This document shows, in pieces, positions 23,737-44,878 of a stretch of 64,000 nt of DNA. The notes beneath the pieces are model-generated. The model searched no databases, was not told where the DNA came from, and worked only from the letters and a program-made list of their open reading frames with translations. The translations under genes and the position numbers were made by a program. Every line of letters begins with the position of its first letter. Within the stretch, counting starts at the first letter, position 1. Source of the DNA: an uncultured Solirubrobacteraceae bacterium (GTDB taxonomy: Bacteria; Actinomycetota; Thermoleophilia; Solirubrobacterales; Solirubrobacteraceae); assembly GCA_963710665.1 (NCBI GenBank), contig CAVQBC010000005.1, positions 158,370 through 222,369 of the forward strand, in the 5' to 3' direction.

Positions 23737-23795
23737 CCCTAAAGTCGCTCGGCTTTACAGGGTTTCGGCGTGGTCGGGCCACTACCATCCACGCG

Positions 23796-25286
23796 GTGAG
23801 CCAGACGACGACGACAGCGCCCGATTTCACCCTCGCCCCCGGGCTGAGCGAGGCGCGCATGCTGATCGGCGGCGAGTGGGTCGACGCCGCCGAAGGCGGC
23901 CGGATCGAGGTCGAGAACCCCTCGCGGCGGACGGTGCTCGCCACGGTGCCCCGCGGCGGCGCGCCCGACGTCGACCGCGCGGTGGCCGCGGCGGCCGGCG
24001 CCTTCGGCGCGTGGCGGGGGCTCCCCGCGCGCGAGCGCGGCACGCTGCTGACCCGGGTCGCGGACGTCCTCGCCGCCCGCGGCGAGGAGCTCGCGCGCAC
24101 GATCGCGGCCGAGACCGGCAACGCGATCCGCACCCAGGCGCGCGGGGAGGCGGCGATGGCCGCCGACGTCCTGCGCTACTTCGGCGGCGTGGCGAGCGAG
24201 CAGAAGGGCGAGGTGCTGCCCATGGGCGACGGGATGCTGAGCTACAGCGTCCGCGAGCCGCTCGGGGTGGTCGCGGGGATCATCCCCTGGAACGCCCCGG
24301 TCCTGCTCGGCTCGCTGAAGATCGCGATGGCCCTGTGCACCGGCAACACGCTCGTGCTCAAGGCCGCCGAGGACGCCCCGCTCGGCGTGCTCACGATGGC
24401 GCAGGCCTGCGACGAGGTCCTGCCCGACGGCGTGCTCAACGTGCTCACGGGAACCGGCGAGGAGTGCGGCGCGCCGCTCCTGAACCACCCTGGCATCGCG
24501 AAGATCTCCTTCACGGGCTCGACCGAGGTGGGGCACATCGCGATGCGGGCGGCGGCCGAGCGGATCCTGCCGGTCTCGCTCGAGCTCGGCGGCAAGGCCC
24601 CGTCGATCGTCTTCCCCGATTCCGGCGACGACACCACCGCCGACGGGGTCATCGCCGCGATGCGCTTCGCGCGCCAGGGCCAGTCGTGCACCGCCGGCTC
24701 GCGCCTCTACGTCCACGAGCGGATCTTCGACGCCTTCCTCGAGCGACTGGCCGGCCGCCTGGGCGAGATGGTGGTGGGCGACGCGCTCGACGAGCGCTCG
24801 GACATGGGCGCGGTCGTCTCCGGCGCCCAGGACACGCGCGTGTGCGGGTTCGTCGAGGAGGCGATGGACCGCGGCGCGCGCGCCGTCATCGGCGGGGCGC
24901 CCGACGACGGGCGGCCGGGCTACCAGCACCGCCCGACGGTGCTGACCGGCATCGACCACGACTGGCGCGTCGCGCGCGAGGAGGTCTTCGGCCCGGTGCT
25001 CGTCGCGTTCCCGTGGTCGGACGAGGACGAGGTGGTGCGCTGGGCGAACGACTCCCACTACGGGCTCGCCGCCTTCGTGTGGTCGCACGACCTCGACGCC
25101 GCGCTGCGCACCGCCCACCGCGTCGAGGCGGGCTGGGTGCAGGTCAACCGCGGCGGCGGCCAGCTGCCGGGGATGAGCTACGGCGGCAAGAAGGAGAGCG
25201 GGCTCGGGGCGGAGTACTCGATCGAGGGCGCGCTGGAGGGCTTCACCCAGCGCAAGAGCATCACGGTCGGGATCGCGCCGGCGTAG
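23796..25286 (+). CDS. NAD(P)-dependent aldehyde dehydrogenase
   Basis: ALDH motifs FTGSTEVG, LELGGKAP and EEVFGPV, with catalytic QSCTAGSR. I prefer GTG 23796, giving 496 aa; the ORF-track ATG 23712 would overlap the divergent gene. Confidence 0.9.
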   Translation: MSQTTTTAPDFTLAPGLSEARMLIGGEWVDAAEGGRIEVENPSRRTVLATVPRGGAPDVDRAVAAAAGAFGAWRGLPARERGTLLTRVADVLAARGEELARTIAAETGNAIRTQARGEAAMAADVLRYFGGVASEQKGEVLPMGDGMLSYSVREPLGVVAGIIPWNAPVLLGSLKIAMALCTGNTLVLKAAEDAPLGVLTMAQACDEVLPDGVLNVLTGTGEECGAPLLNHPGIAKISFTGSTEVGHIAMRAAAERILPVSLELGGKAPSIVFPDSGDDTTADGVIAAMRFARQGQSCTAGSRLYVHERIFDAFLERLAGRLGEMVVGDALDERSDMGAVVSGAQDTRVCGFVEEAMDRGARAVIGGAPDDGRPGYQHRPTVLTGIDHDWRVAREEVFGPVLVAFPWSDEDEVVRWANDSHYGLAAFVWSHDLDAALRTAHRVEAGWVQVNRGGGQLPGMSYGGKKESGLGAEYSIEGALEGFTQRKSITVGIAPA

Positions 25287-26124
25287 CCGGGGCGTTCCGG
25301 ATCACCCGCGGCCGGCCGGCGCCGCCGATCGGCTCCGGCCACAGCGAGTCGCTCAGCAGGCCCGAGACGCCGCGCGCCGTGCGCAGGACGAGCTCGACGA
25401 GCTCGGACTGGCGCTTGCGCAGCTCCGGCGGGCTGACCAGCAGGGTCAGCGAGGCCACGACCTCGTCGGTGGCCCCGAAGACCGGCGCGGCCACCGACGC
25501 CGAGAACAGGCGCACGTCGCGGTCGGTGACCGCGTACCCGCGCGCGCGGACCTCGGCGAAGCGGTCCCGCAGGACGGCGGGGTCGACGATCGTCATCGGC
25601 GTGAGCGCCTCGAGCGGCCGGTCGAGGTAGTCGTCGACGAAGGCGGGATCGGCGTAGGCGAGGAGGACGTGGCCCTTCGACCCGCAGTGCAGCGGGTAGT
25701 TGCAGCCGATCGTCGCCTCCGGAATGTGGTGGCGGGGCGCCTCCGCGACGCTCAGGATCACCGAGCGCCGGTGATCGCGCTTGACCAGCTGCGCGGTGGC
25801 GCGCGACACGGTCGCGGCCGCCTCGAGGTAGGGGTGCGAGACGTGGTGAAGCGGCAGGCGCGCGAGGTAGGACGAGCCGAGCGCGTACGCGCGCACGCCG
25901 ACCGAGTACCGGCGGTCCGCGGCGTCCCGCTCGAGATAGCCGCGCTCCGTCAGGTACGTCAGCAGCCGGTGGGTCGTCGCCCAGGGGAGGCCGAGGTTGC
26001 GCGCGATGTCCGACGCGCGCATCGGGCGGTCCCCGACCTGCTCCAGGACCGCGAAGGCGCGCCCGACGCCCTGGAGGTCCCGGCCCGACCGCGGCTCCGC
26101 CGACGGATGGACATCGTCGGTCAT
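25261..26124 (-). CDS. IclR family transcriptional regulator
   Basis: GVGRAFAVLEQVGDRPMRASDIARNLGLPWATTHRLLTYLTERGYLERD plus an IclR effector domain. Confidence 0.9.
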   Translation of the reverse strand: MTDDVHPSAEPRSGRDLQGVGRAFAVLEQVGDRPMRASDIARNLGLPWATTHRLLTYLTERGYLERDAADRRYSVGVRAYALGSSYLARLPLHHVSHPYLEAAATVSRATAQLVKRDHRRSVILSVAEAPRHHIPEATIGCNYPLHCGSKGHVLLAYADPAFVDDYLDRPLEALTPMTIVDPAVLRDRFAEVRARGYAVTDRDVRLFSASVAAPVFGATDEVVASLTLLVSPPELRKRQSELVELVLRTARGVSGLLSDSLWPEPIGGAGRPRVIRNAPATPARSRP

Positions 26125-26135
26125 CGGCGCACTCT

Positions 26136-26154
26136 ATATCCGCCAGGCGGATAT
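26136..26154. promoter_or_regulatory. perfect 19-bp palindrome 12 nt upstream of the IclR start codon
   Basis: ATATCCGCC-a-GGCGGATAT, with AT-rich ends in a GC-rich context. Confidence 0.4.
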
Positions 26155-26253
26155 CTGGGTTGACGATCGGGGGTGCCCCCTATCGAATCGGCCTCCGGTC
26201 CGGTCGGCCGGCCACCCCGTTGTGCCCGCTTGCATGCCCAGGCTCCATTTCTT

Positions 26254-26278
26254 GTTCCGCCAGCGAACACGCTATTCG
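26254..26278. promoter_or_regulatory. operator-like motif, site A (IclR / ABC-hyu operon intergenic region)
   Basis: GTTCC-GCCAG-CGAAC-ACGCT-ATTCG, followed by ACAAGCGG. One of four related sites. Confidence 0.6.
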
Positions 26279-26424
26279 ACAAGCGGTACAAGCCGTGCCA
26301 CCGTGAGCTGTGACGACGGGCCATTGGCGACGGAGGAGGCGGCCGACAAGCTGCCGCTCGAGATCGGCAACGGACCTGAGGTGATCGAGGCCCATCGCCG
26401 GCATGTTTGAGGAGAGGAGTCCAC

Positions 26425-27585
26425 TTGCCTGACGACCACCCCCACGTCTGGGAGATCGACACCGACACGATGGAGTGGGTCGAGCGGCCGAGGTCCCGGA
26501 GGCACTTCCTGATGGGGGTCGGCGGCACGGTGCTCGGCGCCGGCCTGCTCGGGACGCTGGCGGGCTGCGGCGGCAGCGACGACGAGGGCAGCGCGTCGGC
26601 CGAGGGCGGCAAGCCGGGCGAGGGCAAGACGCTCGCCCTCTCGCTCAACGGGTTCAACACCTACGACCAGGACACCGCCGAGGGGTTCCTGAAGGCGCTG
26701 CAGGGCACGGGCTACCGCCTGATCGGCGCCGAGGCCGCGTTCGACGCGACGAAGGAGCTCGACAACATCCGCCAGCTCGTCGCGCGCCAGCCGGACGGGC
26801 TCGCCGTCCTCGCCGCCAGCGCCGAGGGCGCGGCGCGCGGCGCCGCGGAGGCGAAGCGCAAGGGCATCCCCACCGTCGCCCAGATCTGGTTCCCGGTCTC
26901 CAAGGAAGTGGACTCCGCGGCCTGGGACGCCGCGCTGCAGCTCGACACCGACGAGGGCGGCAAGCTCACGATCGACTTCATCGCCAAGACCCAGGGCGTC
27001 ACCGAGGGCAAGATCCTCGAGATCACCGGCCTCGACGCGCAGCCGTTCAGCGAGGGGTACAAGCAGGGGCTGCGCAAGGCGCTCAAGCAGTACCCCGGGC
27101 TGCGGGTGGTGGCCTCCCAGCAGGGCTTCTACACCGCGGACGGCGCGCTGAAGGTGCTGCGCCCGATGCTCTCGGCCCACCCCGACGCGAAGGTGATCAT
27201 CGACTATGCGGCCGAGATGGGCAACGCGATCGCCCAGGAGCTCAAGCGCCGCAACAAGACGAACATCGTCCACGTCACCTCCGACGGCAACGACGCGATG
27301 ATCCCGCTGCTCAAGGAGGAGGACGGCGCCTACATGAAGGGCGACCGCTGGTTCTCGCCCGGCGACCAGGGCGTCGTCTCGGTCAAGGTCCTGCGCGCGC
27401 GCATCGAGAACGACGAGGATCCGACGAACGAGAACATCGGCGTCGAGGGCTTCACGATCGTGCCGGGGACCAAGGACCCGATCGTGATCAAGACGCGCCA
27501 GGAGCTCGCGACGGCGGAGAACATCGACTCGCTGCCGCCGTTCGGCTACAACGAGCTCGCGAGCAAGATCCCGTTCGGCGGCTGA
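26425..27585 (+). CDS. ABC transporter substrate-binding lipoprotein (CUT2 / periplasmic-binding-protein type, Tat-like signal)
   Basis: RSRRHFLMGVGGTVLGAGLLGTLAGCGG (twin-arginine plus lipobox), then a LacI/RbsB-like binding fold. TTG 26425 lies 5 nt after GAGGAGAGGAG; the ORF-track start at 26407 and ATG 26470 are alternatives. Confidence 0.85.
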   Translation: MPDDHPHVWEIDTDTMEWVERPRSRRHFLMGVGGTVLGAGLLGTLAGCGGSDDEGSASAEGGKPGEGKTLALSLNGFNTYDQDTAEGFLKALQGTGYRLIGAEAAFDATKELDNIRQLVARQPDGLAVLAASAEGAARGAAEAKRKGIPTVAQIWFPVSKEVDSAAWDAALQLDTDEGGKLTIDFIAKTQGVTEGKILEITGLDAQPFSEGYKQGLRKALKQYPGLRVVASQQGFYTADGALKVLRPMLSAHPDAKVIIDYAAEMGNAIAQELKRRNKTNIVHVTSDGNDAMIPLLKEEDGAYMKGDRWFSPGDQGVVSVKVLRARIENDEDPTNENIGVEGFTIVPGTKDPIVIKTRQELATAENIDSLPPFGYNELASKIPFGG

Positions 27586-29117
27586 TGGGGATCGAGTCCG
27601 ATGCCGGCGCCCGCCTGATCGCCCTCCGGGGGCTCGGGAAGGAGTACCCGGGCGTGCGGGCGCTGGACGACGTCTCGTTCGACATCGCGCCCGGGTCGGT
27701 CCACGCCCTCGTGGGGGAGAACGGCGCCGGCAAGTCGACGCTGATCAAGCTGATCGCCGGCGCGATGCGCCCGTCCGCCGGCGAGATCGAGATCGACGGC
27801 CGGCCCCACGCCGCGCTGACCCCGCGCTCCGCCCGCGCGCTCGGGATCCGCCTCGTCGCCCAGGAGCGCCAGTCCTGCGGGGACCTGACGGTCACCGAGA
27901 ACGTGCTGCTCGGGCGCATCCCGACGCGCGGCGGCGCGTACGGGCCCGTGTCCTACGGCCGCGCGCACAGCGAGGCGCGCGAGCGGCTGGAGGAGATCGG
28001 GCTCGACGTGGATCCCCGCCGCCGGATGCGCGAGCTGTCGGTTGCGCAGGTCCAGCTCGTGGAGATCGCGCGGGCGCTGTCGGCGAGCGCCCGCCTGGTG
28101 ATCATGGACGAGCCCACGGCGGCGATGAGCGGCGCCGACGTGCGCGTGCTGTTCGGGGTGATCGCCAAGCTGCGGGCGCGGGGCGTGAGCTTCCTCTACG
28201 TCTCGCACCACCTCGAGGAGATCTTCGAGCTCGCGGACACCGTGACGGTCCTGCGCGACGGCCGCCACGTGACCACGCAGCCGCTCGAGGGCCTCGACAT
28301 GGACCGGCTCGTCGAGCTGCTGCTCGGCCACAAGCCGGAGACCCTCGACGTGGCCCAGCGGGAGAGCCGGCCGTCGGAGACGATCCTCGAGGTCGTCGAC
28401 GCCCACAAGAAGCCGGGGCTGCGCGGCGTCGGCCTGCGCGTGCGCGCCGGCGAGGTCCTCGCCGTCACGGGCGGCATCGGCTCCGGGCGCCGCGAGCTCG
28501 CCCGCTGCGTCGCGGGCATCGAGCAGCCCGAGGCGGGCGAGGTGCGGCTGGCGGGCGGAGCGCGCCTGCGCAACCCCCGCCAGGCCATCCGCCACGGGAT
28601 CGCCTTCCTGCCCGAGGACCGCAAGTACGAGGGCGTGCTGGCCGACCTCGACGTGGTCGACAACGTGGGGATCGGGCGGCGGGCCGCGCAGCGCTCGATG
28701 CTCGACCTGCCCGGCCGCCGCCGCCGCGACGCCGCCGAGATGGTCGCGCGCCTGCGCGTCAAGACCCCGAGCCTGCGCCAGGCGGTGCGGCTGCTGTCGG
28801 GCGGCAACCAGCAGAAGATGCTGCTCGGCCGCTGGCTGAACGTCGGGATCCGGGTGCTCGTGCTCGACGCTCCCACGGAGGGCGTCGACATCGGCAGCCG
28901 GCTCGAGATCTACGGCTTCCTGCGCGACCTCTCCGACGCCGGCGTGGCGGTGGTCATCTTCTCTTCCGACTTCGAGGAGGTCCGGCTGGTGGCGGATCGT
29001 GCGGTGGTGCTCCGGCGCGGGAGGGTCGCGGGCGAGCTGAGCTCCGGCGAGATCACCGAGGAGCGCCTGTACACGCTCGAGTACGGGACCCCGCCCGAGG
29101 GGGTGAAGGCGGCATGA
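27585..29117 (+). CDS. sugar-type (CUT2) ABC transporter ATP-binding protein with duplicated ABC domains
   Basis: From ATG 27585 (TGATG overlap with the SBP stop). First domain: GENGAGKSTL and VIMDEPTAAM. Second domain: LSGGNQQK and LVLDAPTEGVD. Confidence 0.9.
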   Translation: MGIESDAGARLIALRGLGKEYPGVRALDDVSFDIAPGSVHALVGENGAGKSTLIKLIAGAMRPSAGEIEIDGRPHAALTPRSARALGIRLVAQERQSCGDLTVTENVLLGRIPTRGGAYGPVSYGRAHSEARERLEEIGLDVDPRRRMRELSVAQVQLVEIARALSASARLVIMDEPTAAMSGADVRVLFGVIAKLRARGVSFLYVSHHLEEIFELADTVTVLRDGRHVTTQPLEGLDMDRLVELLLGHKPETLDVAQRESRPSETILEVVDAHKKPGLRGVGLRVRAGEVLAVTGGIGSGRRELARCVAGIEQPEAGEVRLAGGARLRNPRQAIRHGIAFLPEDRKYEGVLADLDVVDNVGIGRRAAQRSMLDLPGRRRRDAAEMVARLRVKTPSLRQAVRLLSGGNQQKMLLGRWLNVGIRVLVLDAPTEGVDIGSRLEIYGFLRDLSDAGVAVVIFSSDFEEVRLVADRAVVLRRGRVAGELSSGEITEERLYTLEYGTPPEGVKAA

Positions 29118-30211
29118 GCACGACCGAGCGGGCTCCGGCCACGACCCGCGAGCGCGCCGGCGCGCGCCAGGCCGCCGGCGGGCTGCGCGAGCGCCTGCGC
29201 TACTCGGAGAACCTGCGCACCTACATCCCGCTGCTGGTGGCCATCATCGGCCTGAGCCTCTACGCCGCCGCCAACTCGGACCTCTACCTCACGCTCGACA
29301 ACATCCAGGTCCTGCTGTCGAGCGTCGCGGTGCTCGGCCTCATCACGGTCGGGATGACGCTGATCATGATCGCCGGGCAGCTCGACCTGTCGGTCGGGGC
29401 GGCCGCGACGCTCTCGAGCGTCATCGGCGCGCAGATGATCTCGGGCGGCAGCAGCACGGTGGTCGCCGTCCTCGTGATGCTCCTGCTGCCGATGGCGATC
29501 GGCTGCCTGGTGGGCATCCTCGTGGTGAGCACGGGCGTGCAGCCGTTCATCGTGACCCTCGGGCTGCTGAGCGTGCTGCAGTCGATCTCGCTGATCCAGA
29601 CCGGCCAGCGCCCGATCTCCATCGGCTTCAACCTGTCCGAGATCGACACGACGATCGTCCTCGGGATCCCGCTCCCGTTCTGGATGTTCGTGATCGCGCT
29701 GCTGGTCGGGAGCCTGATCCTGCACTTCTCCCGGCTCGGGCGCAACGCCTTCGCGGTGGGGTCCAACGAGGAGGCGGCGTTCCTGTCGGGCGTCGCGGTC
29801 GGTCGCGTGAAGATCATCCTGTTCTCGCTCAACGGGCTGCTGGTCGGCCTCGGCGGCCTGCTGCTCCTCTCGCGCCTGGGGGCCGGCGACGCGGCGTCCG
29901 GCCAGGGCCTCGAGCTCGACGCCATCGCGGCGGCCGTCATCGGCGGCGCCTCGCTGCTCGGCGGCCGCGGCTCGATGTTCGGGACGTTCCTCGGCGTGAT
30001 GCTGCTCGGCGTGATCGCCAACAGCCTGACCCTGCTCGACGTGTCGTCCTTCTACCAGCGTCTCGTCCTCGGGCTGCTCCTCATGTTCGCGGTGACGGCG
30101 ACCGCGATCGCGGAGAAGCGCAGGGGGTCGGCGGAGTCCGTCGCCGACGTCCTGCGGCGCGTCACCACTGGTCGCCGAACCATGCCCTCGGGCGGAAAGG
30201 AGCCCAGCTGA
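29114..30211 (+). CDS. ABC transporter permease (RbsC/branched-type, CUT2)
   Basis: About 10 TM segments. The start overlaps the ATPase stop (ATGA). Confidence 0.9.
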   Translation: MSTTERAPATTRERAGARQAAGGLRERLRYSENLRTYIPLLVAIIGLSLYAAANSDLYLTLDNIQVLLSSVAVLGLITVGMTLIMIAGQLDLSVGAAATLSSVIGAQMISGGSSTVVAVLVMLLLPMAIGCLVGILVVSTGVQPFIVTLGLLSVLQSISLIQTGQRPISIGFNLSEIDTTIVLGIPLPFWMFVIALLVGSLILHFSRLGRNAFAVGSNEEAAFLSGVAVGRVKIILFSLNGLLVGLGGLLLLSRLGAGDAASGQGLELDAIAAAVIGGASLLGGRGSMFGTFLGVMLLGVIANSLTLLDVSSFYQRLVLGLLLMFAVTATAIAEKRRGSAESVADVLRRVTTGRRTMPSGGKEPS

Positions 30212-32283: not shown

Positions 32284-32284
32284 C

Positions 32285-35311: not shown

Positions 35312-35330
35312 GCGGTGAGCGGTGGTTTGT

Positions 35331-35355
35331 ATTCGGACAGCGAACATGACGTTCG
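35331..35355. promoter_or_regulatory. operator-like motif, site B (upstream of the Mo-hydroxylase operon)
   Basis: ATTCG-GACAG-CGAAC-ATGAC-GTTCG, followed by ACAAGCGG; 33 nt upstream of GTG 35389. Confidence 0.6.
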
Positions 35356-35388
35356 ACAAGCGGAAATGCCTGGAGTAGGGTCGCCGCC

Positions 35389-36261: not shown

Positions 36262-36785
36262 GCGCGCTGGGAGTCGAGCAGCGGCCGACCGCGGACGAGC
36301 CGTGGGTCACCGTCCATCTCACCGTCAACGGGGTGCCGGTGACCCGCACGACCAGCGCGCGCCGGCTGCTCAGCGACTTCCTGCGCCACGAGCTCGGGCT
36401 GCGGGGCACCCACGTCGGCTGCGAGCACGGCGTGTGCGGGTGCTGCACCGTCATGCTCGACGGCAGCTCGGCGCGCTCCTGCCTGCTGCTCGCCGCCCAG
36501 TGCGACGGCGCCGAGATCACCACCATCGAGGGCCTCTCGCCGGACGACGGCGGCATGAGCGTCGTGCAGCAGGCGTTCCGCGAGAGCCACGCGCTGCAGT
36601 GCGGGTTCTGCACGCCGGGCTTCGTCGTGACCGTCACCGAGTTCCTGCGCGAGCACCCGGGGCGCACCGAGTTCACCGACGACGAGCTGCGCGAGGCGCT
36701 CAGCGGCAACCTCTGCCGCTGCACGGGCTACCAGAACATCGTGGCGGCGGTGCGGCGCGCGGCCGAGCTGCAGGCGGCCGGCTGA
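36258..36785 (+). CDS. (2Fe-2S)-binding small subunit (CoxS-like)
   Basis: GCEHGVCGCCTV and CGFCTPGF...NLCRCTGYQNI. ATGA overlap with the upstream gene. Confidence 0.9.
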   Translation: MSALGVEQRPTADEPWVTVHLTVNGVPVTRTTSARRLLSDFLRHELGLRGTHVGCEHGVCGCCTVMLDGSSARSCLLLAAQCDGAEITTIEGLSPDDGGMSVVQQAFRESHALQCGFCTPGFVVTVTEFLREHPGRTEFTDDELREALSGNLCRCTGYQNIVAAVRRAAELQAAG

Positions 36786-36787
36786 CG

Positions 36788-39213
36788 ATGGCGACGCAGA
36801 CCTTCGGCGAGCGGATCACGCGCAACGAGGACCCGCGGCTGCTGCGGGGCGAGGGCCGCTACCTCGACGACGTCGACGCCCACGGCGCGCTGCATGTCGC
36901 GTTCCTGCGCTCGGCGGTCGCCCACGCGCGGATCGCCAGGCTCGACGTCTCCGCGGCGCGCGCCCACCCCGGCGTCGTGCGCGTCTACACCGCGGAGGAC
37001 CTCGGGCGGCTCGACCAGCCGTCCCCGCTGCTGATCCCCCATCCCGCGATGACCCACCCGCGCACGCAGCGCCCGCTGGCGAGCGACGAGGTCACCTACG
37101 TCGGTCAGACGGTGGCCTGCGTGGTGGCCGTCGACCGCTACGTCGCCGAGGACGCGATCGAGCTGATCGAGGTCGCCTACGACCCGCTGCCGGTGCTCGT
37201 CGACCTCGAGGAGGCGGCCGCGGAGGGCGCGCCGCTGGTCCACGCCGACGTCCCGGGCAACCTCGCCTGCCACCACGTGCAGACCAACGGCGATCCCGAC
37301 CGGGCGTTCGCGGAGGCCGAGGTGACGGTGTCCGAGACGTTCACGATCGATCGCAGCGCCGGGATGCCGCTCGAGGCGCGCGGCGTGCTCGCGATCCCGG
37401 ACACCCGCTCCGGCGAGCTCACGGTCTACGACTCGACGCAGGCGCCGATCTCGATCCGCGGCGGGCTCGCCTCGCTCTTCCGCCTGCCCGAGAACAAGGT
37501 GCGCGTGATCGCCCCCGATACGGGCGGCGGGTTCGGCACCAAGGTGATGATGTTCTACCCCGAGGAGATCGTGGTGCCGTTCGCGGCGCTCGACCTCGGC
37601 CGGCCGGTCAAGTGGGTCGAGGACCGCACCGAGCACTTCATCGGCTCGAACCACGAGCGCCGGCAGATCCACACGATCGAGCTGGCGGCGCGCCGCGACG
37701 GCACGGTCCTCGGGCTGCGCGACACCTTCCTCCACGACACCGGCGCCTTCATCCCCTACGGCATCGCCGTGGCGCAGGTCGCGGCCGCCCAGATCGCCGG
37801 CCCGTACAAGATCGAGCACATCGACGTCGGCTTCCGGGCGATCTACACCAACACCGTGCCGGTGAGCCCCTACCGCGGCTGCGGGCGCCCGCAGGCGTGC
37901 CTGACCATCGAGCTCGCGATGGACAAGCTGGCCGCCGAGCTCGGGATCGACCGCATGGAGCTGCGGCGGCGCAACTTCATCGCCCCCGACGACTTCCCCC
38001 ACACCCGCGAGGGCCTGATCTTCGCCGACGGCAAGCCGGTCGTGCTCGACTCCGGCGACTACCCCGGCGCGCTCGCCGACGTGCTCTCAGAGCTCGACTA
38101 CGAGGGCTTCCTGCGCGAGCAGGCCGCCGCGCGCGAGCAGGGCCGCTACCTCGGGCTCGGGCTGGCGTGCTACATCGAGGGGACCGGCCTCGGCCCGTAC
38201 GAGGGCGCGCGCGTCCAGGTCCGCCCGACCGACGGCAGGGTGTTCGTCGCGACCGGGCTCACCAGCCAGGGGCAGGCCCACCAGACGACGTTCGCCCAGA
38301 TCGTCGCCGACCGGCTGGGCGTCGACCCGTCCGAGGTGGAGGTCACGACCGGGGACACGGGCGAGTTCCCCTACGGCGTGGCCACCTTCGCGAGCCGCGC
38401 CGCCGTCGTGAGCGGCACGGCGATCCACCGGGCCGCGCAGGGGCGGTGCGCGAGCGGGCGATCGAGCTCGCGGCCAACATGCTCGAGGCCGACCCCGAGG
38501 ACCTCGTGCTCGAGGAGGGCATGGTGCGCGTGAAGGGCTCGCCGGGCCACGGCGTGCCGCTCAAGCAGATCGCGGTGGCGTCGAACCCGCTGCGCTACGC
38601 CTTCGACGAGGACGCGCAGGCGGCCACGCAGTTCGCGCCCGCGCATCCCCCCGACGCGAACAAGCCGCTGCCCGAGGGCGAGCACCCCGGCCTCGAGGCC
38701 ACCGCGTGGTACAGCCCGGAGCTCTCGACGTGGGCGAGCGGGACGCACGCGGCCGTCGTCGAGGTCGACCCCGAGACGTGCGAGGTGCGCTTCCTGCGCT
38801 ACGTGTGCTCGCACGACTGCGGGAAGATGATCAACCCCCAGGTGGTCGAGGGGCAGGTCCTCGGCGGGGTCGCCCAGGGGGTCGGCGGGGCCTACTACGA
38901 GCGCATGTCCTACGACGAGGACGGCCAGCTCACCAACGCGTCGCTGATGGAGTTCCTCATGCCCTACGCGACCGAGGTGCCGGCGGTGACGGTCCTGCAC
39001 CGCGAGACCCCGTCGCCGCTCAACGAGCTCGGCGTCAAGGGCGTGGGGGAGGCGGGCGCGATCCCGGTGCCGGCCCTGTTCGCCGCCGCCGTCCAGGACG
39101 CGCTGCAGCCGCTCGGCGTCCGCGTCACCCAGGTGCCGCTCAGCCCGAACCGCATCCACGAGCTGATCGAGGCCGCGGGTAACGGCGACCGGAGCGCTCA
39201 GTGGCCGGGGTGA
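36788..39213 (+). pseudogene. molybdopterin-binding large subunit (CoxL/XdhA-like) interrupted by a -1 frameshift
   Basis: The N-terminal ~550 aa (RNEDPRLLRGEGRYLDD...YRGCGRP) are in the 36788 frame. The C-terminus (AVRERAIELAANMLE...GVKGVGEAGAIP) is in the 37612 frame. The junction is a G-run at 38440-38443; adding one G restores AAQGAVRER. Confidence 0.8.
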
Positions 39214-40046
39214 CCCGGACGCCAGCCGATCGCCAGCGAGAGCGACGCGGCGGCCTCGGACACGGCGCCCACGAGCCGCTCGAGGTAGGCGTCGTCGTTC
39301 ATCCGCGCGCTGCGGGCGATCAGCGTGGTGCAGGCGACGACGTCCCCGCCCGCGTCGCGCACGGGACTCGCGACCGAGCCGACGCCCAGCTGGAGGTCGT
39401 CGCGGGTCACGGCGTAGCCGGCCGCCCGGACCTCCTCGATGCGCTCCCGCAGCTGCTCGGGGTCGGTGATCGTCAGCGCCGTGAACGGGCGCAGCGACCC
39501 CTCGAGCACGCGCTCGCGCACGACCTTCGGCGCGTAGGCGAGCAGCAGGTGGCCCTTGGAGGCGACGTTGAGCGGCCACGAGAAGCCGGGCTGGGTCTTG
39601 GCGATGCTCGTCGGGGCGTCGACGTACATCAGCGTGATGACGCGCAGGCCCTGGCGCTCGTTGAGCTGCGCGGCGCAGCGCATCTCCTCGCCGGCCGGCT
39701 TGAGGTGCGGCGGCGCGGCCTGCACGAGCGGGTGGCTGTTCAGGTAGGCCGAGCCGAGCCGGTAGAGGTGCGACCCCACGGAGTACACGCCGGTGGCGGA
39801 GTCGACCCGCAGGTACCCGTGCTCCTCGAGGTAGGCGAGCGTCCGGTAGGCCGTGGTCCACTTGAGGCCGAGCCGGCTCGCGAGCTCCTTGGCGCGCATC
39901 GGGCGCTCGGCGACCGCCTCGATGATCGTCATCGCGCGGCCGACGCCCTGCAGCGCGGCGTAGCGGCCGGGGCTCGAGCGCGGGCCCGCACCCGCCTCGC
40001 CGGTGAGCGCTTCGACGTCCGCGAGATCGGCTGACCGGCGAGCCAT
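39198..40046 (-). CDS. IclR family transcriptional regulator
   Basis: From ATG 40046: GVGRAMTIIEAVAERPMRAKELASRLGLKWTTAYRTLAYLEEHGYLRVD plus an effector domain. Confidence 0.85.
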   Translation of the reverse strand: MARRSADLADVEALTGEAGAGPRSSPGRYAALQGVGRAMTIIEAVAERPMRAKELASRLGLKWTTAYRTLAYLEEHGYLRVDSATGVYSVGSHLYRLGSAYLNSHPLVQAAPPHLKPAGEEMRCAAQLNERQGLRVITLMYVDAPTSIAKTQPGFSWPLNVASKGHLLLAYAPKVVRERVLEGSLRPFTALTITDPEQLRERIEEVRAAGYAVTRDDLQLGVGSVASPVRDAGGDVVACTTLIARSARMNDDAYLERLVGAVSEAAASLSLAIGWRPGHPGH

Positions 40047-40069
40047 GGCGCGACGGCATCCTAACGCCG

Positions 40070-40094
40070 GTCCGGACAGCGAACACGGTATTCG
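40070..40094. promoter_or_regulatory. operator-like motif, site C (IclR / hyuA2 divergent region)
   Basis: GTCCG-GACAG-CGAAC-ACGGT-ATTCG; 24 nt from the IclR ATG. Confidence 0.6.
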
Positions 40095-40125
40095 CGAGGC
40101 GGACGTCAGCGCGGGAACACCGGGC

Positions 40126-42175
40126 CTGCGCGTCGCGGTCGACACCGGCGGCACGTTCACCGACGTCGTCGCGATCGACGAGGCGGCGGGGCGGACCTAC
40201 GTGACCAAGACGCCGTCGACCCCGCGCGAGCCGTGGGTCGCGCTGATGGACGGGCCTGCGCAAGATCGCGGCCGAGGCGGGCGGCGAGCTCGGCGGCGTC
40301 TCGACGCTCATCCACGGCACCACCACCGCGACCAACGCGCTGCTCGAGGGCCGCTTCGACCGGCTGGGGCTGATCGTCACGCGCGGCTTCCGCCACCTGC
40401 TCGAGATCGCGCGCCAGTCGGTCCCCGACGGCTACGGCAACTCCTACTTCTGGGTCAAGCCGCCGCGCATCGTCGCGCTCGAGCGCGTGGAGGAGGTCGG
40501 CGGGCGCATGGACCACCACGGGGCGGAGCTCACCGCGCTCGACTCCGACGACGTGCGCGCCGCCGGCGAGCGCTTCGCCCGGCTCGGCGTGGACTGCGTC
40601 GCGGTCTGCCTGCTGCACGCCTACGCCAACCCCGCCCACGAGCTGCGCGCGCGCGAGCTGCTGACCGAGTCGCTGCCGGACGCGTTCGTGTCGCTGTCCT
40701 GCGAGGTCCTGCCCGAGTACCGCGAGTACGAGCGCGCGATGACCACCACGATCGACGTGATGGTCAAGCCACACACGCGCGACTACCTCATGCGCGGCCG
40801 GCGCGAGCTCGACGCGGCGACCGGCGGCGTGCCGTTCCTGATCATGCAGAGCAACGGCGGTGTCGTCGGCGTCGAGCGCGCAGCGGAGAAGCCGATCACC
40901 ACGCTGCTCTCCGGCCCGGCCGCGGGCGTGCTCGGGGCGAGCTTCGTCGCCGAGCGCGCGGGCTACCGCGACCTGCTCACGCTCGACGCCGGCGGGACCT
41001 CCACCGACGTCGCGCTCGTCGAGGACCTGCGGCCGCTCTACACGACCGAGGGCCGCTTCGACCGCTTCCCGATCAAGACCCCGATGGTCGACGTCGTGGC
41101 GGTCGGGACCGGCGGCGGGTCGATCGCCTGGATCGGCCCGCAGCGGGCGCTCAAGGTCGGGCCGCGCAGCGCGGGGGCCGACCCCGGGCCGATCTGCTAC
41201 CTGCGCGGCGGGACCGAGCCGACGGTGACCGACGCCAACCTCGTGCTGGGGCGGATCCCGCCGCGGCTCGCGTGGGGCCAGGTGCCGCTCGACGTCGACG
41301 CCGCGCGCGAGGGGGTCGCGCGCCTGGGCGCGGAGCTCGGGCTCGGGCTCGAGGACACCGCGCTCGGCATCCTCGAGATCGCGGCGTGGAACCAGTCCAA
41401 CGGGATCCGCCGCGTGTCGATCGAGCGCGGCCGCGAGCCGAGCGACTACTGCCTGGTCGCCTTCGGCGGGTCCGGCGGCATGCTCGCCCATCACGTCGCG
41501 GGGCTGCTCGGGATCCGGACCGTGCTCGTGCCCGAGAACCCGGGGAACCTCTCGGCGTTCGGCCTGCAGGTGACCGACATCAAGCGCGACTACGTCCGCA
41601 CGCTGGTGCGCGACGAGACGCGCGCGAGCGCCGCGGAGCTCGAACGGGCCTGGACCGAGCTCGAGCGGCGCGGGCGCGACGACCTGCTGGGCGAGGGCGT
41701 CCCCGCCGAGGCGATCGTCCTGCGGCGCTCGGCCGACATGCGCTACGTCGGCGAGGCGCACGAGGTGCAGGTGCCGGCGGCCGAGGGGCCGCTCACCGAC
41801 GCGACGCTGCCGGCGCTGTTCGGCGCCTTCCACGGGGTGCACGAGCGGACGTTCGGCTACGCCTACGAGGGCCTCCAGCACGGCGAGATCGTCAACCTCC
41901 GGGTGGAGGCGGTCGGGTCCGTGCGCCGCCCGCGGCTGCAGGCCGACGAGGCCGCCCCGGCGGCGAGCGAGGCCGAGCCCGTCGAGCACCGGGACGTCGT
42001 CTTCGACGGCCTCGGCGCGGTCGCGTGCCCGATCCACCTGCGCGAGCGTCTCGCCCCGGGCGCGCGGCTGGACGGCCCCGCGGTCGTCGAGGAGTCGGGG
42101 TCCACCGTGGTGGTCTACGACGGCTGGACCGCGCGCGTGGACCGGTACCGCAACCTGATCACCGAGCGAGGTTGA
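40126..42175 (+). pseudogene. second hydantoinase/oxoprolinase A-type subunit (HyuA2) with a +1 frameshift; start codon uncertain
   Basis: (L/M)RVAVDTGGTFTDVVAIDE...VALMDG is in the 40003 frame. It continues as LRKIAAEAGGELGGVSTLIHGTTTATNALLE in the 40487 frame. The junction is at GAC GGG C CTG (40252-40255). CTG 40126 aligns with the MRVGIDVGGTFTD start of HyuA1; the in-frame ATG at 40045 would cover operator C. Confidence 0.75.
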
Positions 42176-42176
42176 C

Positions 42177-44087
42177 ATGGCGACCCAGTCACGCGAGCGC
42201 GCGGCGTCCGGCCGGCTGAACCCCGTCACGCTCGAGGTCATCGAGGGCTCGGTCCGCTCCGCGGAGCTCGAGATCGAGGCGGCGGTCGAGCGCACCGCCC
42301 GCTCGCCGATGATCCGCGACCAGCACGACTACCGCGTGGCGCTGTTCGACCGTCGTGGGCGCAAGCTCACCGGCCGCTCGTACTCGGCCCTGGTCGAGCC
42401 CGTGCTCGAGCGCTTCGACGTCGACGACATGCAGCCCGGCGACGTCTTCTTCTTCAACGACCCCTACCAGTCGGCGGGCGGGATCGGGCACGTGCCCGAC
42501 CTGTGCACGACCGTCCCGATCTTCGCCGACGGCCGCGTGATCGCCTTCGCCCAGGTCTTCGGCCACCATGACGACGTCGGCGGGATGGTGCCGGGCTCGC
42601 TGCCTACCAACGCCACCTCGATCTACCAGGAGGGGCTGCTCGTCCCGCCGCTCAAGCTCTACGACGCGGGGCGGCCGAACGAGGGCGCGCTGGCGATGAT
42701 CGAGCGCAACTCCCGGCTCCCCGACCACCTGCGGGGCGACATCGACGCCGAGATCGGCGCCTGCCTGGTGGGCTCGCGGCGCATCGTCGCGCTCGCCGAG
42801 CGCTACGGGGCCGGCGTCGTGGAGGAGGCGTTCGACGAGCTGATCGCCAAGTGCACGCGCGTGGTGCGCGAGGAGCTGCTCCCGAAGATCGCCGACGGCG
42901 TCTACCACTGGGAGGACTACGTCGAGAACGACGGCGTCGGCGAGCCGCGGCTGCACGCGCTGCGGATGACGATGACCAAGACCGCCGACAAGCTGGTCCT
43001 CGACTTCAACGGCACCGATCCGCAGGCCCGCGGGCCCATCAACTGGGCCACGAACTTCAACGACGGGCGGTTCGCCAAGAAGTGGATCGGCCCGATCCTG
43101 CGCAACCTTGCCGACACGCCCGAGCGCGCGGCCGAGATCGACATCAACGAGGGCATCTGCGACGTGATCGACATCGTCTTCCCGCCCCCGGGGACGCTCG
43201 TCTCGCCGCGCTTCCCCGCCCCGGTCGGAATGCGCTTCTTCACGTTCCTGCGCGTGCTGGGGATCTTCGCGGGGTGCCTCGCCAAGGCGACCGGCGGGCG
43301 CATGCCGGCCGACCAGGAGACGATCCGCATCTGGGGGATCCACGGCTCCGACGAGGAGCGCTTCTTCCTCTTCCGCGAGGTGCTCGGCGGCGGCTCGGGC
43401 GGCCGCTGGTACGCGGACGGCTCGGACGTCATCCACATCGTCCCGAACTCGCGCAACCTCCCGGCCGAGTTCTCGGAGACCCGCTTCCCGATCCTCGTCG
43501 AGCAGCTCGGGCTCAAGCAGGACTCCGGCGGCCCCGGCGAGCGCCGCGGCGGGCTCGGGTACGACAAGCGGATCCGCGCCCTGCGCGACGTCAAGCTGCT
43601 CTCCAACGCCGACCGCTCCATCCTCAACACCTACGGGCTGGCGGGCGGGCGCGCCGGCGGGCGCTACGCGGTGTCCGTCCAGCGCCCGGACGCGGACGCC
43701 GCGGAGCCCGTGCCGGGGCTGGCCGACGACGTCGACGTGCCCGCGGGCTCGGTCATCCGCATCGTGACCACGGGCGGCGGAGGCTGGGGGGACCCGCTGC
43801 GCCGCGACCCCGAGGAGCTGCGCCTCGACGTGTGGCGCGGCGTCGTGTCGCCCGAGAGCGCCGAGCGGGACTACGGCGTGGTCCTCACCCCGGGCGATCC
43901 GCCGCGGCTCGACCTCGAGGCGACGGCGGCGCGGCGCGCCGAGCTCGCCGCCGCGCGCGCCGCGCCGCGGATGTTCGACCGCGGGGCCGGCTACGAGGAG
44001 ATGCTCGAGCGCGCGGGGCCGGTGCGGCGCCCGCCGGGCTGGGACGATCCGGACGCCGTCGACGCCGACGGTGAGCCCACCGCCTAG
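42177..44087 (+). CDS. second hydantoinase B/oxoprolinase-family subunit (HyuB2; acetone-carboxylase/caprolactamase-like clade possible)
   Basis: NPVTLEVIEGSVRSAELEIEAAV...NDPYQSAGGIGHVPD...GGGGWGDPLRRDPEEL; 636 aa. Confidence 0.9.
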   Translation: MATQSRERAASGRLNPVTLEVIEGSVRSAELEIEAAVERTARSPMIRDQHDYRVALFDRRGRKLTGRSYSALVEPVLERFDVDDMQPGDVFFFNDPYQSAGGIGHVPDLCTTVPIFADGRVIAFAQVFGHHDDVGGMVPGSLPTNATSIYQEGLLVPPLKLYDAGRPNEGALAMIERNSRLPDHLRGDIDAEIGACLVGSRRIVALAERYGAGVVEEAFDELIAKCTRVVREELLPKIADGVYHWEDYVENDGVGEPRLHALRMTMTKTADKLVLDFNGTDPQARGPINWATNFNDGRFAKKWIGPILRNLADTPERAAEIDINEGICDVIDIVFPPPGTLVSPRFPAPVGMRFFTFLRVLGIFAGCLAKATGGRMPADQETIRIWGIHGSDEERFFLFREVLGGGSGGRWYADGSDVIHIVPNSRNLPAEFSETRFPILVEQLGLKQDSGGPGERRGGLGYDKRIRALRDVKLLSNADRSILNTYGLAGGRAGGRYAVSVQRPDADAAEPVPGLADDVDVPAGSVIRIVTTGGGGWGDPLRRDPEELRLDVWRGVVSPESAERDYGVVLTPGDPPRLDLEATAARRAELAAARAAPRMFDRGAGYEEMLERAGPVRRPPGWDDPDAVDADGEPTA

Positions 44088-44878
44088 CCCGCCTTGCGCT
44101 CGGCGTAGGTGCCGCCCTCGCGGGCGAGCTGCTCGACCAGCCGCTCGAGGCCGTCGATGATCGCGGCGAGGAAGCGCTCGCCGGACTCCGCCGAGGCGGT
44201 CTGCGGCGCGCCGAAGATCGCCGGATGACCGGCCGCGGCCGTGGGGAACGGCGCGTACGTGCGGGCCGGCTCGACCGGCGCCACCAGGTCCCACGCGACG
44301 AGCGGCGCGTGCACGCCGTCGAGGCGCTCCATGTGCACGAGGTGCGGGCGGGTCGCGAGCTGGAACGACGTCTCGAGCTCGCACGCGTGCCCCATGCCGC
44401 CCACGGGGGAGCGGCGGAGCGCGTGCAGCTCGGCGGCCGCCGGCTCCCAGTAGCTCAGGGCGCTGATCTGTACGGGGGCAGCGCCGGCGGCGTCCACGAT
44501 CCGGCGCGCGGCGACGTCGACCGCCGTGCCGTTGGGCCGGTGCCCGTTGAGCAGCCAGATGCGGCGGAAGCCCTGGCGCACGAGGCTCCCGCCGATCTCG
44601 ACGAGGACCTGCTGGAAGGTCTCGGGCGACAGCGTGATCGTGCCGGGGAAGCCCATCCACATCTCGGCGTAGCCGTAGGGCAGCGCGGGCGCGACGACGC
44701 CGCCGACGCGCTCGGCCAGCAGCCGCGCGACCTCGCCCGCCTGGTGGGTGTCCGTGTCGAGCGGCATGTGCGGGCCGTGCGCCTCGGTCGACCCGATGGG
44801 CACGATGACCAGCCGGTCCGCCGCGGCGAGCTCGCCCGCCTCCGGCCAGGTGTGATCTCCGAGCAGGACGCTTGCCAT
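44084..44878 (-). CDS. creatininase (creatinine amidohydrolase/ArfB/MftE) family amidohydrolase
   Basis: The real gene is the C-terminal 264 aa of the 954-aa ORF, from ATG 44878 with AGGAG upstream. Motifs: VIVPIGSTEAHGPHMPLDTD, LLNGHRPN and GHACELETS. Confidence 0.85.
   Translation of the reverse strand: MASVLLGDHTWPEAGELAAADRLVIVPIGSTEAHGPHMPLDTDTHQAGEVARLLAERVGGVVAPALPYGYAEMWMGFPGTITLSPETFQQVLVEIGGSLVRQGFRRIWLLNGHRPNGTAVDVAARRIVDAAGAAPVQISALSYWEPAAAELHALRRSPVGGMGHACELETSFQLATRPHLVHMERLDGVHAPLVAWDLVAPVEPARTYAPFPTAAAGHPAIFGAPQTASAESGERFLAAIIDGLERLVEQLAREGGTYAERKAG

Follow-up and report, generated by a model that had tools for sequence, protein, structure and literature searches.

The DNA analyzed here, a stretch of 64 kb from an uncultured Solirubrobacteraceae bacterium (contig CAVQBC010000005.1 of GenBank assembly GCA_963710665.1; hereafter the window), contains a gene cluster of about 19.6 kb and about 15 genes that is probably a catabolic cluster for an N-heterocycle and a variant of the oxidative route of pyrimidine degradation. 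It encodes an ABC importer with a solute-binding protein (SBP), two ATP-dependent HyuA/HyuB cyclic amidases, a molybdenum hydroxylase (CoxMSL), an M20 metallohydrolase, a creatininase-family amidohydrolase (Crea), and two IclR-family regulators (Table 1). We observed directly its gene content, its synteny in relatives, a predicted operator shared by its transcription units, the family membership of its enzymes, and the association of their orthologs with pyrimidine permeases, barbiturase, and malonate-handling genes. A preliminary description made from the letters of the window had proposed that an N-heterocycle is hydroxylated by the molybdenum enzyme, that a cyclic amide is opened at the expense of ATP, and that metal amidohydrolases trim the product, a general logic consistent with every family assignment reported below.

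At the level of sequence, the best argument for grouping the four transcription units of the region is a palindrome, CGAACA-N3-YRTTCG, which we found by comparing promoter regions. It occurs once before each of the four units (O1–O4 in Table 1), that is, four times in the window compared with 0.04 expected from shuffles, although this count is post hoc and weakens the case to that extent, the pattern having been defined from the same four sites that were counted. Because the palindrome recurs at orthologous intergenic sites in relatives, the regulon has support independent of that count. There are eight such relatives (L001, L003, L008, L021, L024, L026, L107, and L109; labels of this form denote related loci or contigs). 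O1 has counterparts, differing at no more than one base, at the corresponding site in L001 (6109), L003 (6117), and L008 (6126), and the orthologous copy of O2 lies at 15104 in all three. Orthologous copies of O4 were found just upstream of the Crea orthologs in L024 (9970), L026 (9902), and L107 (9860), and further copies, likewise differing at no more than one base, occupy the IclR/carboxyltransferase site in L021 and the SBP/cyclase-Crea intergenic region of L109. The PucR-regulated actinomycete loci described below contained none. The IclR proteins are predicted to bind the palindrome. The assumption that these genes form one functional unit is supported by their conserved synteny and by the predicted operator that their promoter regions share, and we consider it likely that a single regulon, directed at a small cyclic ureide or amide, spans the region.

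The closest relatives of the cluster are found in uncultured Thermoleophilaceae and other metagenome-assembled genomes (MAGs) of Thermoleophilia. Gene-neighborhood conservation, proposed earlier as a check, was evident: at least seven independent contigs carry this gene set in synteny. In L001, L003, and L008 the genes keep the order IclR-SBP-ATPase-permease-HyuA1-HyuB1-M20-CoxMSL-HyuA2-HyuB2, at about 82% identity; all three have an iclR1 ortholog (72–76% identical) in the same position, and every cluster gene is intact in L001 and L008. Comparison across loci divided the cluster into two modules. Module 1 consists of the ABC importer, HyuA1B1, and an ArgE/DapE-type M20 enzyme; its core is the HyuA1-HyuB1-M20 triad, which occurs in L001–L012, L021, L023, and L025 with varying transporters (CUT2, LIV-type, or MFS). 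Module 2 consists of Crea-HyuA2-HyuB2-CoxM-CoxS-CoxL, which in L024 and L025 form a single co-directional operon that adjoins module 1 and has the crea ortholog as its first gene. At least 12 further contigs, matched by their identical lengths, were common to two of three homolog lists, which is suggestive only. A metagenome scan with Crea returned almost only distant paralogs (34–46% identical) and served as a negative control: since distant creatininase homologs (35–45% identical) never sat beside HyuAB or CoxL, the association is specific to one creatininase subfamily. No Crea ortholog was found among plasmids, where all matches were below 40% identity, and an exact-sequence look-up of HyuA1 gave no match. 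We did not count HyuAB-CoxMSL adjacencies in Rokubacteria and ANGP1 as the same system, as their partners differ (SBP_bac_1 ABC, EthD, xylose-isomerase-like barrel, DHDPS, ADH), and we left unused the ACS-like genes that L001, L024, and L025 carry close to the cluster, their mutual identity being only about 32%.

The neighborhoods of orthologous genes offered clues to the substrate. We compared the cluster with loci on chromosomes or plasmids of three cultured actinomycete strains in a plasmid collection, whose CoxL proteins are 48–54% identical to that of the window. In Embleya sp. NBC_00888 the order is XdhC ... PucR - NCS2 permease - CoxM - CoxS - CoxL - CoxG - CN_hydrolase; CoxL reaches 1540 bits on the NCBIfam model NF040766, and the best models for the permease are RutG (368 bits) and uracil permease (286), with xanthine permease at 169. 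About 8 kb away lie an AtzD-family gene, a carbamate kinase, a carboxyltransferase, and a CoA-transferase, and then an NCS1 permease, an amidohydrolase, and a HyuB-HyuA pair. Encoded by the AtzD-family gene is a barbiturase ortholog (594 bits with PDB 5hwe vs 324 for cyanuric acid hydrolases) that carries the Bar signature of barbiturases (His/Lys and Ser-Val-Ala) defined in PMC3758960. Nonomuraea gerenzanensis has the order PucR - two RutG/uracil-type permeases - CoxMSL ... CoxG ... HyuA-HyuB ... CoA-transferase - carboxyltransferase ... barbiturase ortholog, the last being 77% identical to its Embleya counterpart, and plasmid pRZP2 of Rhodococcus sp. ZPP carries an amidase, a CoA-transferase, XdhC, PucR, an NCS2 permease, CoxMSL, CoxG, and HyuA-HyuB. 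The NF040766-type CoxMSL is the sole molybdenum hydroxylase in these neighborhoods. The CoxL of the window is orthologous (54% identical in Embleya, NF040766) to the CoxL encoded beside RutG-like permeases and near barbiturase orthologs in Embleya and Nonomuraea. The actinomycete HyuA and HyuB proteins are 47–61% identical to HyuA2/HyuB2 and only 31–42% to HyuA1/HyuB1, with HyuB2 reaching 55–61% identity to the HyuB proteins of the Rhodococcus sp. ZPP and Nonomuraea pyrimidine-type clusters. CoxL matches at 45–50% identity in Serratia and Variovorax plasmids were set aside as uninformative, their contexts being unrelated.

Loci with Crea orthologs point in the same direction. In L108, a Crea ortholog (64% identical) overlaps the end of a barbiturase-type gene with the Bar signature. 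In L109, the genes after the Crea ortholog (76% identical) encode a malonyl-CoA-synthase-like ligase, an MdcD-like carboxyltransferase, and an asparaginase-type amidase, and L024 has a malonyl-CoA decarboxylase between the two modules as well as an AtzE/allophanate-hydrolase-like amidase. Barbiturate, the only known substrate of barbiturase, is a product of uracil oxidation and is broken down to malonate and urea (PMC3758960). The gene context moves the emphasis to pyrimidines, which the preliminary description had listed for growth tests and had left out of its named candidates, these being creatinine or hydantoins, lactams, and purine or pyridine derivatives. The L108 locus (9069–13004) has further features of its own. 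Its barbiturase-type gene as called lacks about 76 N-terminal profile positions, and the Crea ortholog next to it is followed by a TRZ/ATZ-family hydrolase split over two open reading frames (ORFs), the second of which is fused to a cyclase/formamidase domain. This locus may represent another route to barbiturate, one that uses a deaminase instead of a molybdenum hydroxylase.

We propose the following scheme, in which every substrate and reaction is predicted from sequence. The cluster would be an IclR-controlled catabolic regulon by which a Thermoleophilia soil bacterium takes up a small, polar cyclic ureide or amide and breaks it down. The most likely substrates would be uracil or thymine, as a pyrimidine base, together with a related ring compound. 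The lipoprotein SBP and the ABC transporter would import the substrate. CoxMSL would then place an oxo group beside a ring nitrogen, converting uracil or thymine to barbiturate or 5-methylbarbiturate, and HyuA2B2 would use ATP to hydrolyze a stable ring amide bond of the oxidized pyrimidine. Crea would cleave the ring-opened, ureidomalonate-like ureide towards urea and malonate. In the least certain step, which concerns the role of module 1, HyuA1B1 would open a second cyclic amide or ureide, and the M20 enzyme would take off the resulting N-carbamoyl or N-acyl group, yielding an amino acid, ammonia, and CO2.

Several observations weigh against pyrimidines as the substrate. A tblastn search of the 64-kb window with the L108 barbiturase-family protein found no barbiturase, and the window holds neither malonate genes nor an NCS2 permease, its importer being a CUT2 system of the sugar type. 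CoxL shares only 54% identity with the actinomycete proteins and has the loop PYRGCGR where they have PYRGAGR (Cys for Ala), so its specificity could differ. The barbiturase link of the Crea subfamily comes from one contig, L108. Capillimicrobium parvum and L023 have module 1 but no module 2, and the connection of module 1 to pyrimidines is a proposal and the least certain part of the scheme. Finally, Embleya and Nonomuraea hold both a barbiturase and a HyuA2B2-like pair in the same neighborhood; HyuA2B2 is therefore not simply a barbiturase substitute, and we dropped the idea of a plain replacement. HyuA2B2 must instead do something that barbiturase does not; it may serve the thymine branch or act on another ring. 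It is because of the missing barbiturase and NCS2 permease, the divergence and loop change of CoxL, the coexistence of barbiturase with HyuA2B2-like pairs, and the tenuous link of module 1 that we hold as tentative, and as falling slightly short of an even chance, the reading of the cluster as a variant of the pathway from uracil or thymine through barbiturate and ureidomalonate to malonate and urea.

The same enzymes could act on a different N-heteroaromatic compound, such as a purine (for example xanthine) or a pyridine, quinoline, or nicotinate-type ring, which the molybdenum hydroxylase would turn into a lactam for the two HyuAB pairs to open. CoxMSL has the domains of a molybdenum hydroxylase with L, M, and S subunits (Ald_Xan_dh_C with MoCoBD_1/2, FAD_binding_5 with CO_deh_flav_C, and Fer2 with Fer2_2), and CoxL keeps the catalytic Glu in its G-x-G-E motif (GVGE at residue 752). 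Among solved structures, CoxL is about equally like 8uem CoxL (511 bits), 1t3q quinoline 2-oxidoreductase (496), and 7dqx 6-hydroxypseudooxynicotine dehydrogenase (480), which favors this alternative; PucR-family regulators and NCS2 permeases also serve purine catabolism, and HyuAB-CoxMSL adjacency recurs in unrelated Rokubacteria-type clusters. We nevertheless consider another heteroaromatic substrate unlikely: the permeases score about twice as high on RutG/uracil-permease models as on xanthine-permease models, barbiturase lies in the same neighborhood in two genomes and beside a Crea ortholog in a third, and no ring-cleaving oxygenase, uricase, or allantoin genes are present.

A second alternative is that two pathways lie side by side with only the type of regulator in common, module 1 serving a hydantoin- or lactam-type compound and module 2 a different heterocycle. 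The occurrence of module 1 alone in Capillimicrobium parvum and L023 fits this arrangement, as do the Crea orthologs without HyuAB in L107–L109 and the actinomycete clusters that hold parts of module 2 and no module 1. We regard it as equally doubtful, however, as the same palindrome precedes all four units and the modules stay adjacent in the window, L001, L003, L008, L024, L025, and partly L021, despite reordering.

Genes were called from third-position G+C and then confirmed by Pfam and NCBIfam profile searches of the 64-kb window; since G+C makes up about 74% of the window, most of the ORFs listed for it are spurious. All genes named in the preliminary description were recovered where it had placed them, and its choice of start for the SBP gene is a good one, a TTG 6 bases after GGAGAGGAG. 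Against solved structures, the SBP found only weak matches to distant ribose-binding proteins (2ioy, E=6e-16), which gave no hint of its ligand. Direct reading of the sequence agreed with the tight gene junctions described earlier, which are overlaps or gaps of 1–2 nt: TGATG joins SBP to ATPase and permease to hyuA1, ATGA joins ATPase to permease, hyuB1 to M20, and coxM to coxS, and TGACATG, with a one-base gap, joins hyuA1 to hyuB1 and hyuA2 to hyuB2. The true starts of iclR2 and hyuA2 are uncertain. The ATG codons of iclR2 (40046, minus strand) and hyuA2 (40045, plus strand) both lie inside one CCATGG palindrome, and from 40048 to its DTGGTFTD motif hyuA2 has no in-frame ATG, GTG, or TTG, only ATT at 40087 and CTG at 40126. 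The counterpart of iclR2 in L110 was called as 244 aa, and iclR2 is 45–48% identical to the IclR genes of L021 and L024. The region had been called an island, a term that its composition does not support: G+C is flat, at 0.71–0.745 inside compared with about 0.74 for the window. The Pfam and NCBIfam results for the cluster flanks included no integrase, and the sole Rfam match in the window is a tRNA-Tyr (GTA) at 15201–15282, about 10 kb from the cluster; the same search found no riboswitch. By composition, flanking tRNA, and integrase, the region reads as a gene cluster and shows no mark of a horizontally acquired genomic island.

Table 1. Genes of the cluster and predicted operators, with positions counted from the first base of the window
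Feature	Position	Strand	Description and basis
iclR1	25261–26124	-	IclR-family regulator; Pfam HTH_IclR and IclR_C; divergent from importer operon
O1	26264–26278	.	CGAACACGCTATTCG; iclR1/sbp intergenic; predicted operator
sbp	26425–27585	+	SBP lipoprotein of CUT2-type ABC importer; Pfam Peripla_BP_4; Tat-like SRRHFL motif, LAGC lipobox
ABC ATPase	27585–29117	+	Two fused ABC_tran domains (Pfam); TGATG junction
ABC permease	29114–30211	+	BPD_transp_2 (Pfam); ATGA junction
hyuA1	30211–32283	+	ATP-binding subunit, cyclic amidase 1; Pfam Hydant_A_N, Hydantoinase_A, Hydant_A_C
hyuB1	32285–34127	+	Catalytic subunit, cyclic amidase 1; Hydantoinase_B; frameshifted in this assembly
M20	34124–35311	+	M20 metallohydrolase, ArgE/DapE deacylase subfamily (TIGR01910); proposed decarbamoylase/deacylase
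O2	35341–35355	.	CGAACATGACGTTCG; between M20 and coxM; predicted operator
coxM	35389–36261	+	FAD subunit of molybdenum hydroxylase; Pfam FAD_binding_5 and CO_deh_flav_C
coxS	36258–36785	+	2x[2Fe-2S] subunit; Pfam Fer2 and Fer2_2
coxL	36788–39213	+	Molybdopterin subunit; MoCoBD_2, NF040766; frameshifted in this assembly
iclR2	39198–40046	-	Second IclR-family regulator; Pfam; start uncertain (40046 or 39932)
hyuA2	~40045–42175	+	ATP-binding subunit, cyclic amidase 2; frameshifted in this assembly
O3	40080–40094	.	CGAACACGGTATTCG; iclR2/hyuA2 divergent region; 35 nt inside hyuA2 ORF as called from ATG 40045
hyuB2	42177–44087	+	Catalytic subunit, cyclic amidase 2; full-length Hydantoinase_B
crea	44084–44878	-	Creatininase-family metal amidohydrolase (PF02633), convergent; proposed hydrolase of ring-opened ureide
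O4	44898–44912	.	Perfect palindrome ACGAACACGATGTTCGT; 20 nt upstream of crea; predicted operator

Both HyuA/HyuB pairs are assigned by sequence to the hydrolase branch of the hydantoinase/oxoprolinase family. Each consists of a HyuA with PF05378, PF01968, and PF19278 and an adjacent HyuB with PF02538, and the DxGGTFTD motif is present in HyuA1 and HyuA2. The nearest structures to both pairs are 7hk5, an N-methylhydantoinase (454 bits for HyuA1), and 6yra, a caprolactamase. Scores on the caprolactamase CapA/CapB models (NF050156/NF050157) fall well below the cut-off of 1000 bits (533 for HyuA1, 293 for HyuB1, and 212 for HyuB2). Acetone and acetophenone carboxylases fit no better: the Apc models give 117–259 bits vs cut-offs of 1250–1500, the HyuB proteins have 613 and 636 aa vs more than 700 aa for the long HyuB-like subunit of those enzymes, and the cluster has no gene for their small gamma/epsilon subunit. 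The M20 protein passes TIGR01910 (225.2 bits vs 217.6) and has DapE and ArgE as its PDB neighbors. Its top NCBIfam matches are all ArgE/DapE/YgeY types, and the model for the N-carbamoyl-L-amino-acid/allantoate amidohydrolase clade is not among the best 25 of its 48 NCBIfam hits. The earlier suggestion that it deacylates or decarbamoylates is kept in part, as it is an ArgE/DapE-type deacylase outside the classical carbamoylase clade. There is a precedent in YgeY, an ArgE/DapE-like M20 enzyme reported to hydrolyze a ureido group after hydantoin opening (bioRxiv 10.1101/2025.04.24.650524).

Crea belongs by sequence to the creatininase-family metal amidohydrolases and is not a true creatininase. 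It matches Pfam Creatininase (PF02633, E=3e-62) and stays below the equivalog cut-offs of TIGR04448 creatininase (129.3 vs 235), MftE (119.6 vs 172), and IolN (83.8 vs 245). The metal ligands of the Pseudomonas putida creatininase are, as we take them, Glu34, His36, Asp45, His120, and Glu122, with His178 as the catalytic residue. Aligned to 1q3k, Crea keeps the E-x-H, D, NGH, and H...E-T-S motifs, and Glu122, in the numbering presumed here, is replaced by Pro (NGHRPN). These features bear on another possibility, that the cluster degrades creatinine or N-methylhydantoin by means of a creatininase, an N-methylhydantoinase, and a carbamoylase. The strong Pfam match, the label of the nearest solved HyuA/B structure, and the names that JGI annotation gives to homologs all speak for it. 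We consider it improbable, and the creatinine/N-methylhydantoin candidates named earlier are correspondingly weak: apart from the low TIGR04448 score and the replaced Glu122, neither creatinase nor creatinine deaminase is present, nor is a sarcosine oxidase or an isochorismatase-type carbamoylsarcosine amidase, creatinase, sarcosine oxidase, and a creatinine transporter were missing from the Pfam and NCBIfam results for the window and for every orthologous locus, the pathway has no use for a molybdenum hydroxylase, and the distant creatininase homologs never occur with HyuAB.

Three genes, hyuB1, coxL, and hyuA2, are each broken in this assembly by a frameshift that the preliminary description had missed, as seen from a frame plot, split Pfam profiles, and tblastn comparison with intact orthologs. 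In hyuB1 the break lies between 33431 and 33458, with Hydantoinase_B positions 1–371 in one frame and 350–519 in another; the ortholog in L001 is intact (614 aa, 87% identical). In coxL it lies near 38438–38445, with MoCoBD_2 positions 2–126 and 127–283 in different frames, and P0241, a CoxL homolog from other assemblies, is intact (804 aa, 99% identical); by comparison, the window seems to carry 2 extra bases. In hyuA2 one extra C at 40251–40255 puts the N-terminal DTGGTFTD motif out of frame with the remainder. The independent short-read contig L110, 98.86% identical to the window over 8.6 kb, differs by 97 substitutions and exactly one indel, which is this C, and its HyuA2 is intact (709 aa). 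Frame breaks are not confined to the cluster. The housekeeping-type gene cofD (2-phospho-L-lactate transferase of F420 biosynthesis, 52994–54056) is split near 53680, with Pfam CofD positions 1–195 in one frame and 197–287 in another, and a LuxR/TPR regulator gene (TPR and GerE, 54211–55754) has a probable frame change near 55050–55126 or could be two adjacent genes, giving about one frame break per 13 kb across the whole window. Splits of a like kind occur in the long-read MAG relatives L003, L011, L012, and L026. Between the window and L110, synonymous and non-synonymous differences number 13 and 2 in hyuA2, 14 and 4 in hyuB2, and 13 and 1 in crea, a mostly synonymous pattern that suggests functional genes. 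Because of the split cofD, the splits in relatives, the intact L110 hyuA2 and P0241 CoxL, and the mostly synonymous changes, the frameshifts most probably arose in assembly; at most they would be very recent changes. The three breaks inside 19.6 kb could also mean that hyuB1, coxL, and hyuA2 are true pseudogenes and that the pathway no longer works in this organism, which we judge highly improbable on the same evidence, in particular the accumulation of 97 substitutions in L110 without the hyuA2 indel and the probable break in the LuxR/TPR gene. On pRZP2 of Rhodococcus sp. ZPP (L114), coxL (15001–17395) and hyuA (18277–20350) each align in two segments that lie in separate frames, and the finished plasmid record lists neither as a protein-coding gene; these are possibly real pseudogenes in a cultured strain.

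The name carried by CoxL needs separate comment. The frameshift-corrected protein passes NF040766, "CODH_aero_grp5" (1070 bits vs a cut-off of 950), and fails the form I CO dehydrogenase model TIGR02416 (545 vs 991); its active-site loop, VSPYRGCGRPQ, has the form II-type PYRGCGR and not the form I AYXCSFR. The NF040766 label "aerobic carbon-monoxide dehydrogenase large subunit" is what favors an aerobic CO dehydrogenase unrelated to the adjoining hydrolases, an explanation that we put aside as extremely improbable given the form I score, a loop without the copper-binding cysteine context, the absence of coxDEF accessory genes, the palindrome that coxMSL shares with the hydrolase operons, and its place inside one operon with the hydrolases in L024 and L025. 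The NF040766 members that we inspected (L113 12001–14430, L112 12001–14352, and the coxL of the window) have the form II-type loop PYRG(A/C)GRP and lie in nucleobase or hydrolase gene contexts. The label may be a systematic misannotation, one possibly also carried by Bradyrhizobium proteins with 62–64% identity. NF040766 proteins are at present named aerobic CO dehydrogenase in Bradyrhizobium, actinomycete, and Thermoleophilia genomes. A more far-reaching version of the pyrimidine reading, which we rate as rather unlikely, is that NF040766 "group 5 CoxL" would be the uracil/thymine dehydrogenase and that Thermoleophilia would run an ATP-driven oxidative pyrimidine pathway, in which HyuAB and a Crea "ureidomalonase" extend or replace barbiturase and ureidomalonase and the second HyuAB with M20 handles a further cyclic ureide.

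We next compared the cluster with described systems. The oxidative pyrimidine pathway was described in the 1950s, and we know of no gene assigned to its uracil/thymine dehydrogenase, an orphan enzyme. In Rhodococcus erythropolis the route comprises uracil/thymine dehydrogenase (EC 1.17.99.4), barbiturase (EC 3.5.2.1), and ureidomalonase (EC 3.5.1.95) (Soong et al. 2001/2002, as cited in PMC3758960). The cluster resembles this route in having a molybdenum-type hydroxylase whose orthologs cluster with a barbiturase ortholog, uracil/RutG-like permeases, and malonate-handling genes, and in its proposed hydrolytic ring opening followed by ureide cleavage. It differs in the lack of a barbiturase gene in the window, in its two ATP-dependent HyuAB pairs, Crea, and M20, none of which belongs to the described pathway, and in having an ABC importer in place of the NCS2 permease and IclR in place of PucR. 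Hydantoin utilization by hyuA-hyuB-hyuC and the N-methylhydantoinase branch of creatinine degradation are known from Pseudomonas sp. NS671 and P. putida 77. Like these systems, module 1 has an ATP-dependent two-subunit enzyme of the hydantoinase/oxoprolinase family followed by an M20 enzyme; unlike hyuABC, its M20 falls in the ArgE/DapE subfamily and not in the carbamoylase/allantoate-amidohydrolase clade, there is no racemase, and module 1 is coupled to a molybdenum hydroxylase, a second HyuAB pair, and Crea. Caprolactamase CapAB (PMC8453981) and 5-oxoprolinase share the family and subunit architecture, provide the nearest NCBIfam models, and have metal-binding His/Asp motifs that are kept in the B subunits of the cluster, but the CapAB scores given above lie far under the equivalog cut-offs, and the gene context lacks an aminotransferase or omega-amino-acid route.

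The 2,8-dioxopurine (anaerobic urate) pathway of gut bacteria (bioRxiv 10.1101/2025.04.24.650524) likewise combines a molybdenum enzyme, ring opening, and ureido removal, and its ureido hydrolase YgeY is an ArgE/DapE-like M20. Its ring openers, however, are the amidohydrolase-superfamily enzymes SsnA and HyuA in place of ATP-dependent HyuAB, the route itself is anaerobic, reductive, and linked to selenium, and the cluster has no carbamoyltransferase. The N-heterocycle hydroxylases of the CoxL/Qor/Kdh type (1t3q, 7dqx) share the L/M/S three-subunit architecture and the form II-type loop and score about 480–510 bits, but the CoxL of the cluster belongs to a different clade (NF040766). Mineralization of cyanuric acid (AtzD, AtzE/G, AtzH, AtzF; PMC6219798) also begins with a ring-opening amidase followed by ureido-carboxylate amidases, and the amidases that accompany the orthologous clusters are closest to AtzE and allophanate hydrolase; the window nevertheless has no AtzD-type gene, and the AtzD-family genes of relatives bear the barbiturase signature and not that of cyanuric acid hydrolases. 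In the literature that we searched, we found no description of this exact combination as a pathway, in keeping with the preliminary description, nor of ATP-dependent HyuAB in pyrimidine catabolism or of genes for uracil/thymine dehydrogenase.

Several features lie next to the cluster or its modules. On one side are an NMT1/THI5-like solute-binding gene (22840–23736, minus strand) and an aldehyde dehydrogenase gene (23712–25286, plus strand), whose 3' end overlaps that of iclR1 by 26 nt with no operator motif at that place; an aldehyde dehydrogenase 40% identical to the flanking one is encoded near the Crea ortholog of L109. On the other side, directly upstream of crea, lies a gene for a mostly hydrophobic protein of 731 aa (44962–47157, minus strand) with no Pfam or NCBIfam match. 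This protein is 99% conserved in the sister contig L110 and absent from all other related loci, and the 19 synonymous and 10 non-synonymous differences from L110 indicate weaker constraint. Since operator O4 sits between this gene and crea, the gene may lie outside the regulon. At its start is an inverted repeat with perfect 8-bp arms (ACGGCCCG-N8-CGGGCCGT, 47156–47179), located in the divergent region common to an aminotransferase gene (47225–48550). Near module 1 in two relatives, a different type of CoxMSL (about 31% identical) recurs with HapK (L023 3468–7433, L021 3694–7625), accompanied in L023 by a short HyuA-like protein, a DUF917/S-Me-THD protein, and a luciferase-like monooxygenase; these genes make up a module of their own, likewise uncharacterized.

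If the pyrimidine reading is correct, the orphan uracil/thymine dehydrogenase would gain candidate genes in the cultivable strains Embleya sp. NBC_00888, Nonomuraea gerenzanensis, and Rhodococcus sp. ZPP. Nucleobase recycling would become a role of ATP-dependent HyuAB and of a new creatininase-family subgroup, and a nitrogen-scavenging route would be added for the poorly known but abundant Thermoleophilia of soil. The larger import would follow if NF040766 proteins prove to be pyrimidine hydroxylases and not CO dehydrogenases, which is directly testable in cultured strains: a widespread family annotated as CO dehydrogenase would need renaming, and surveys of atmospheric CO oxidizers in soil would be affected. 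Even without the substrate, the conserved predicted operator and the two IclR regulators constitute a ready-made inducible system and offer a direct way to the ligand.

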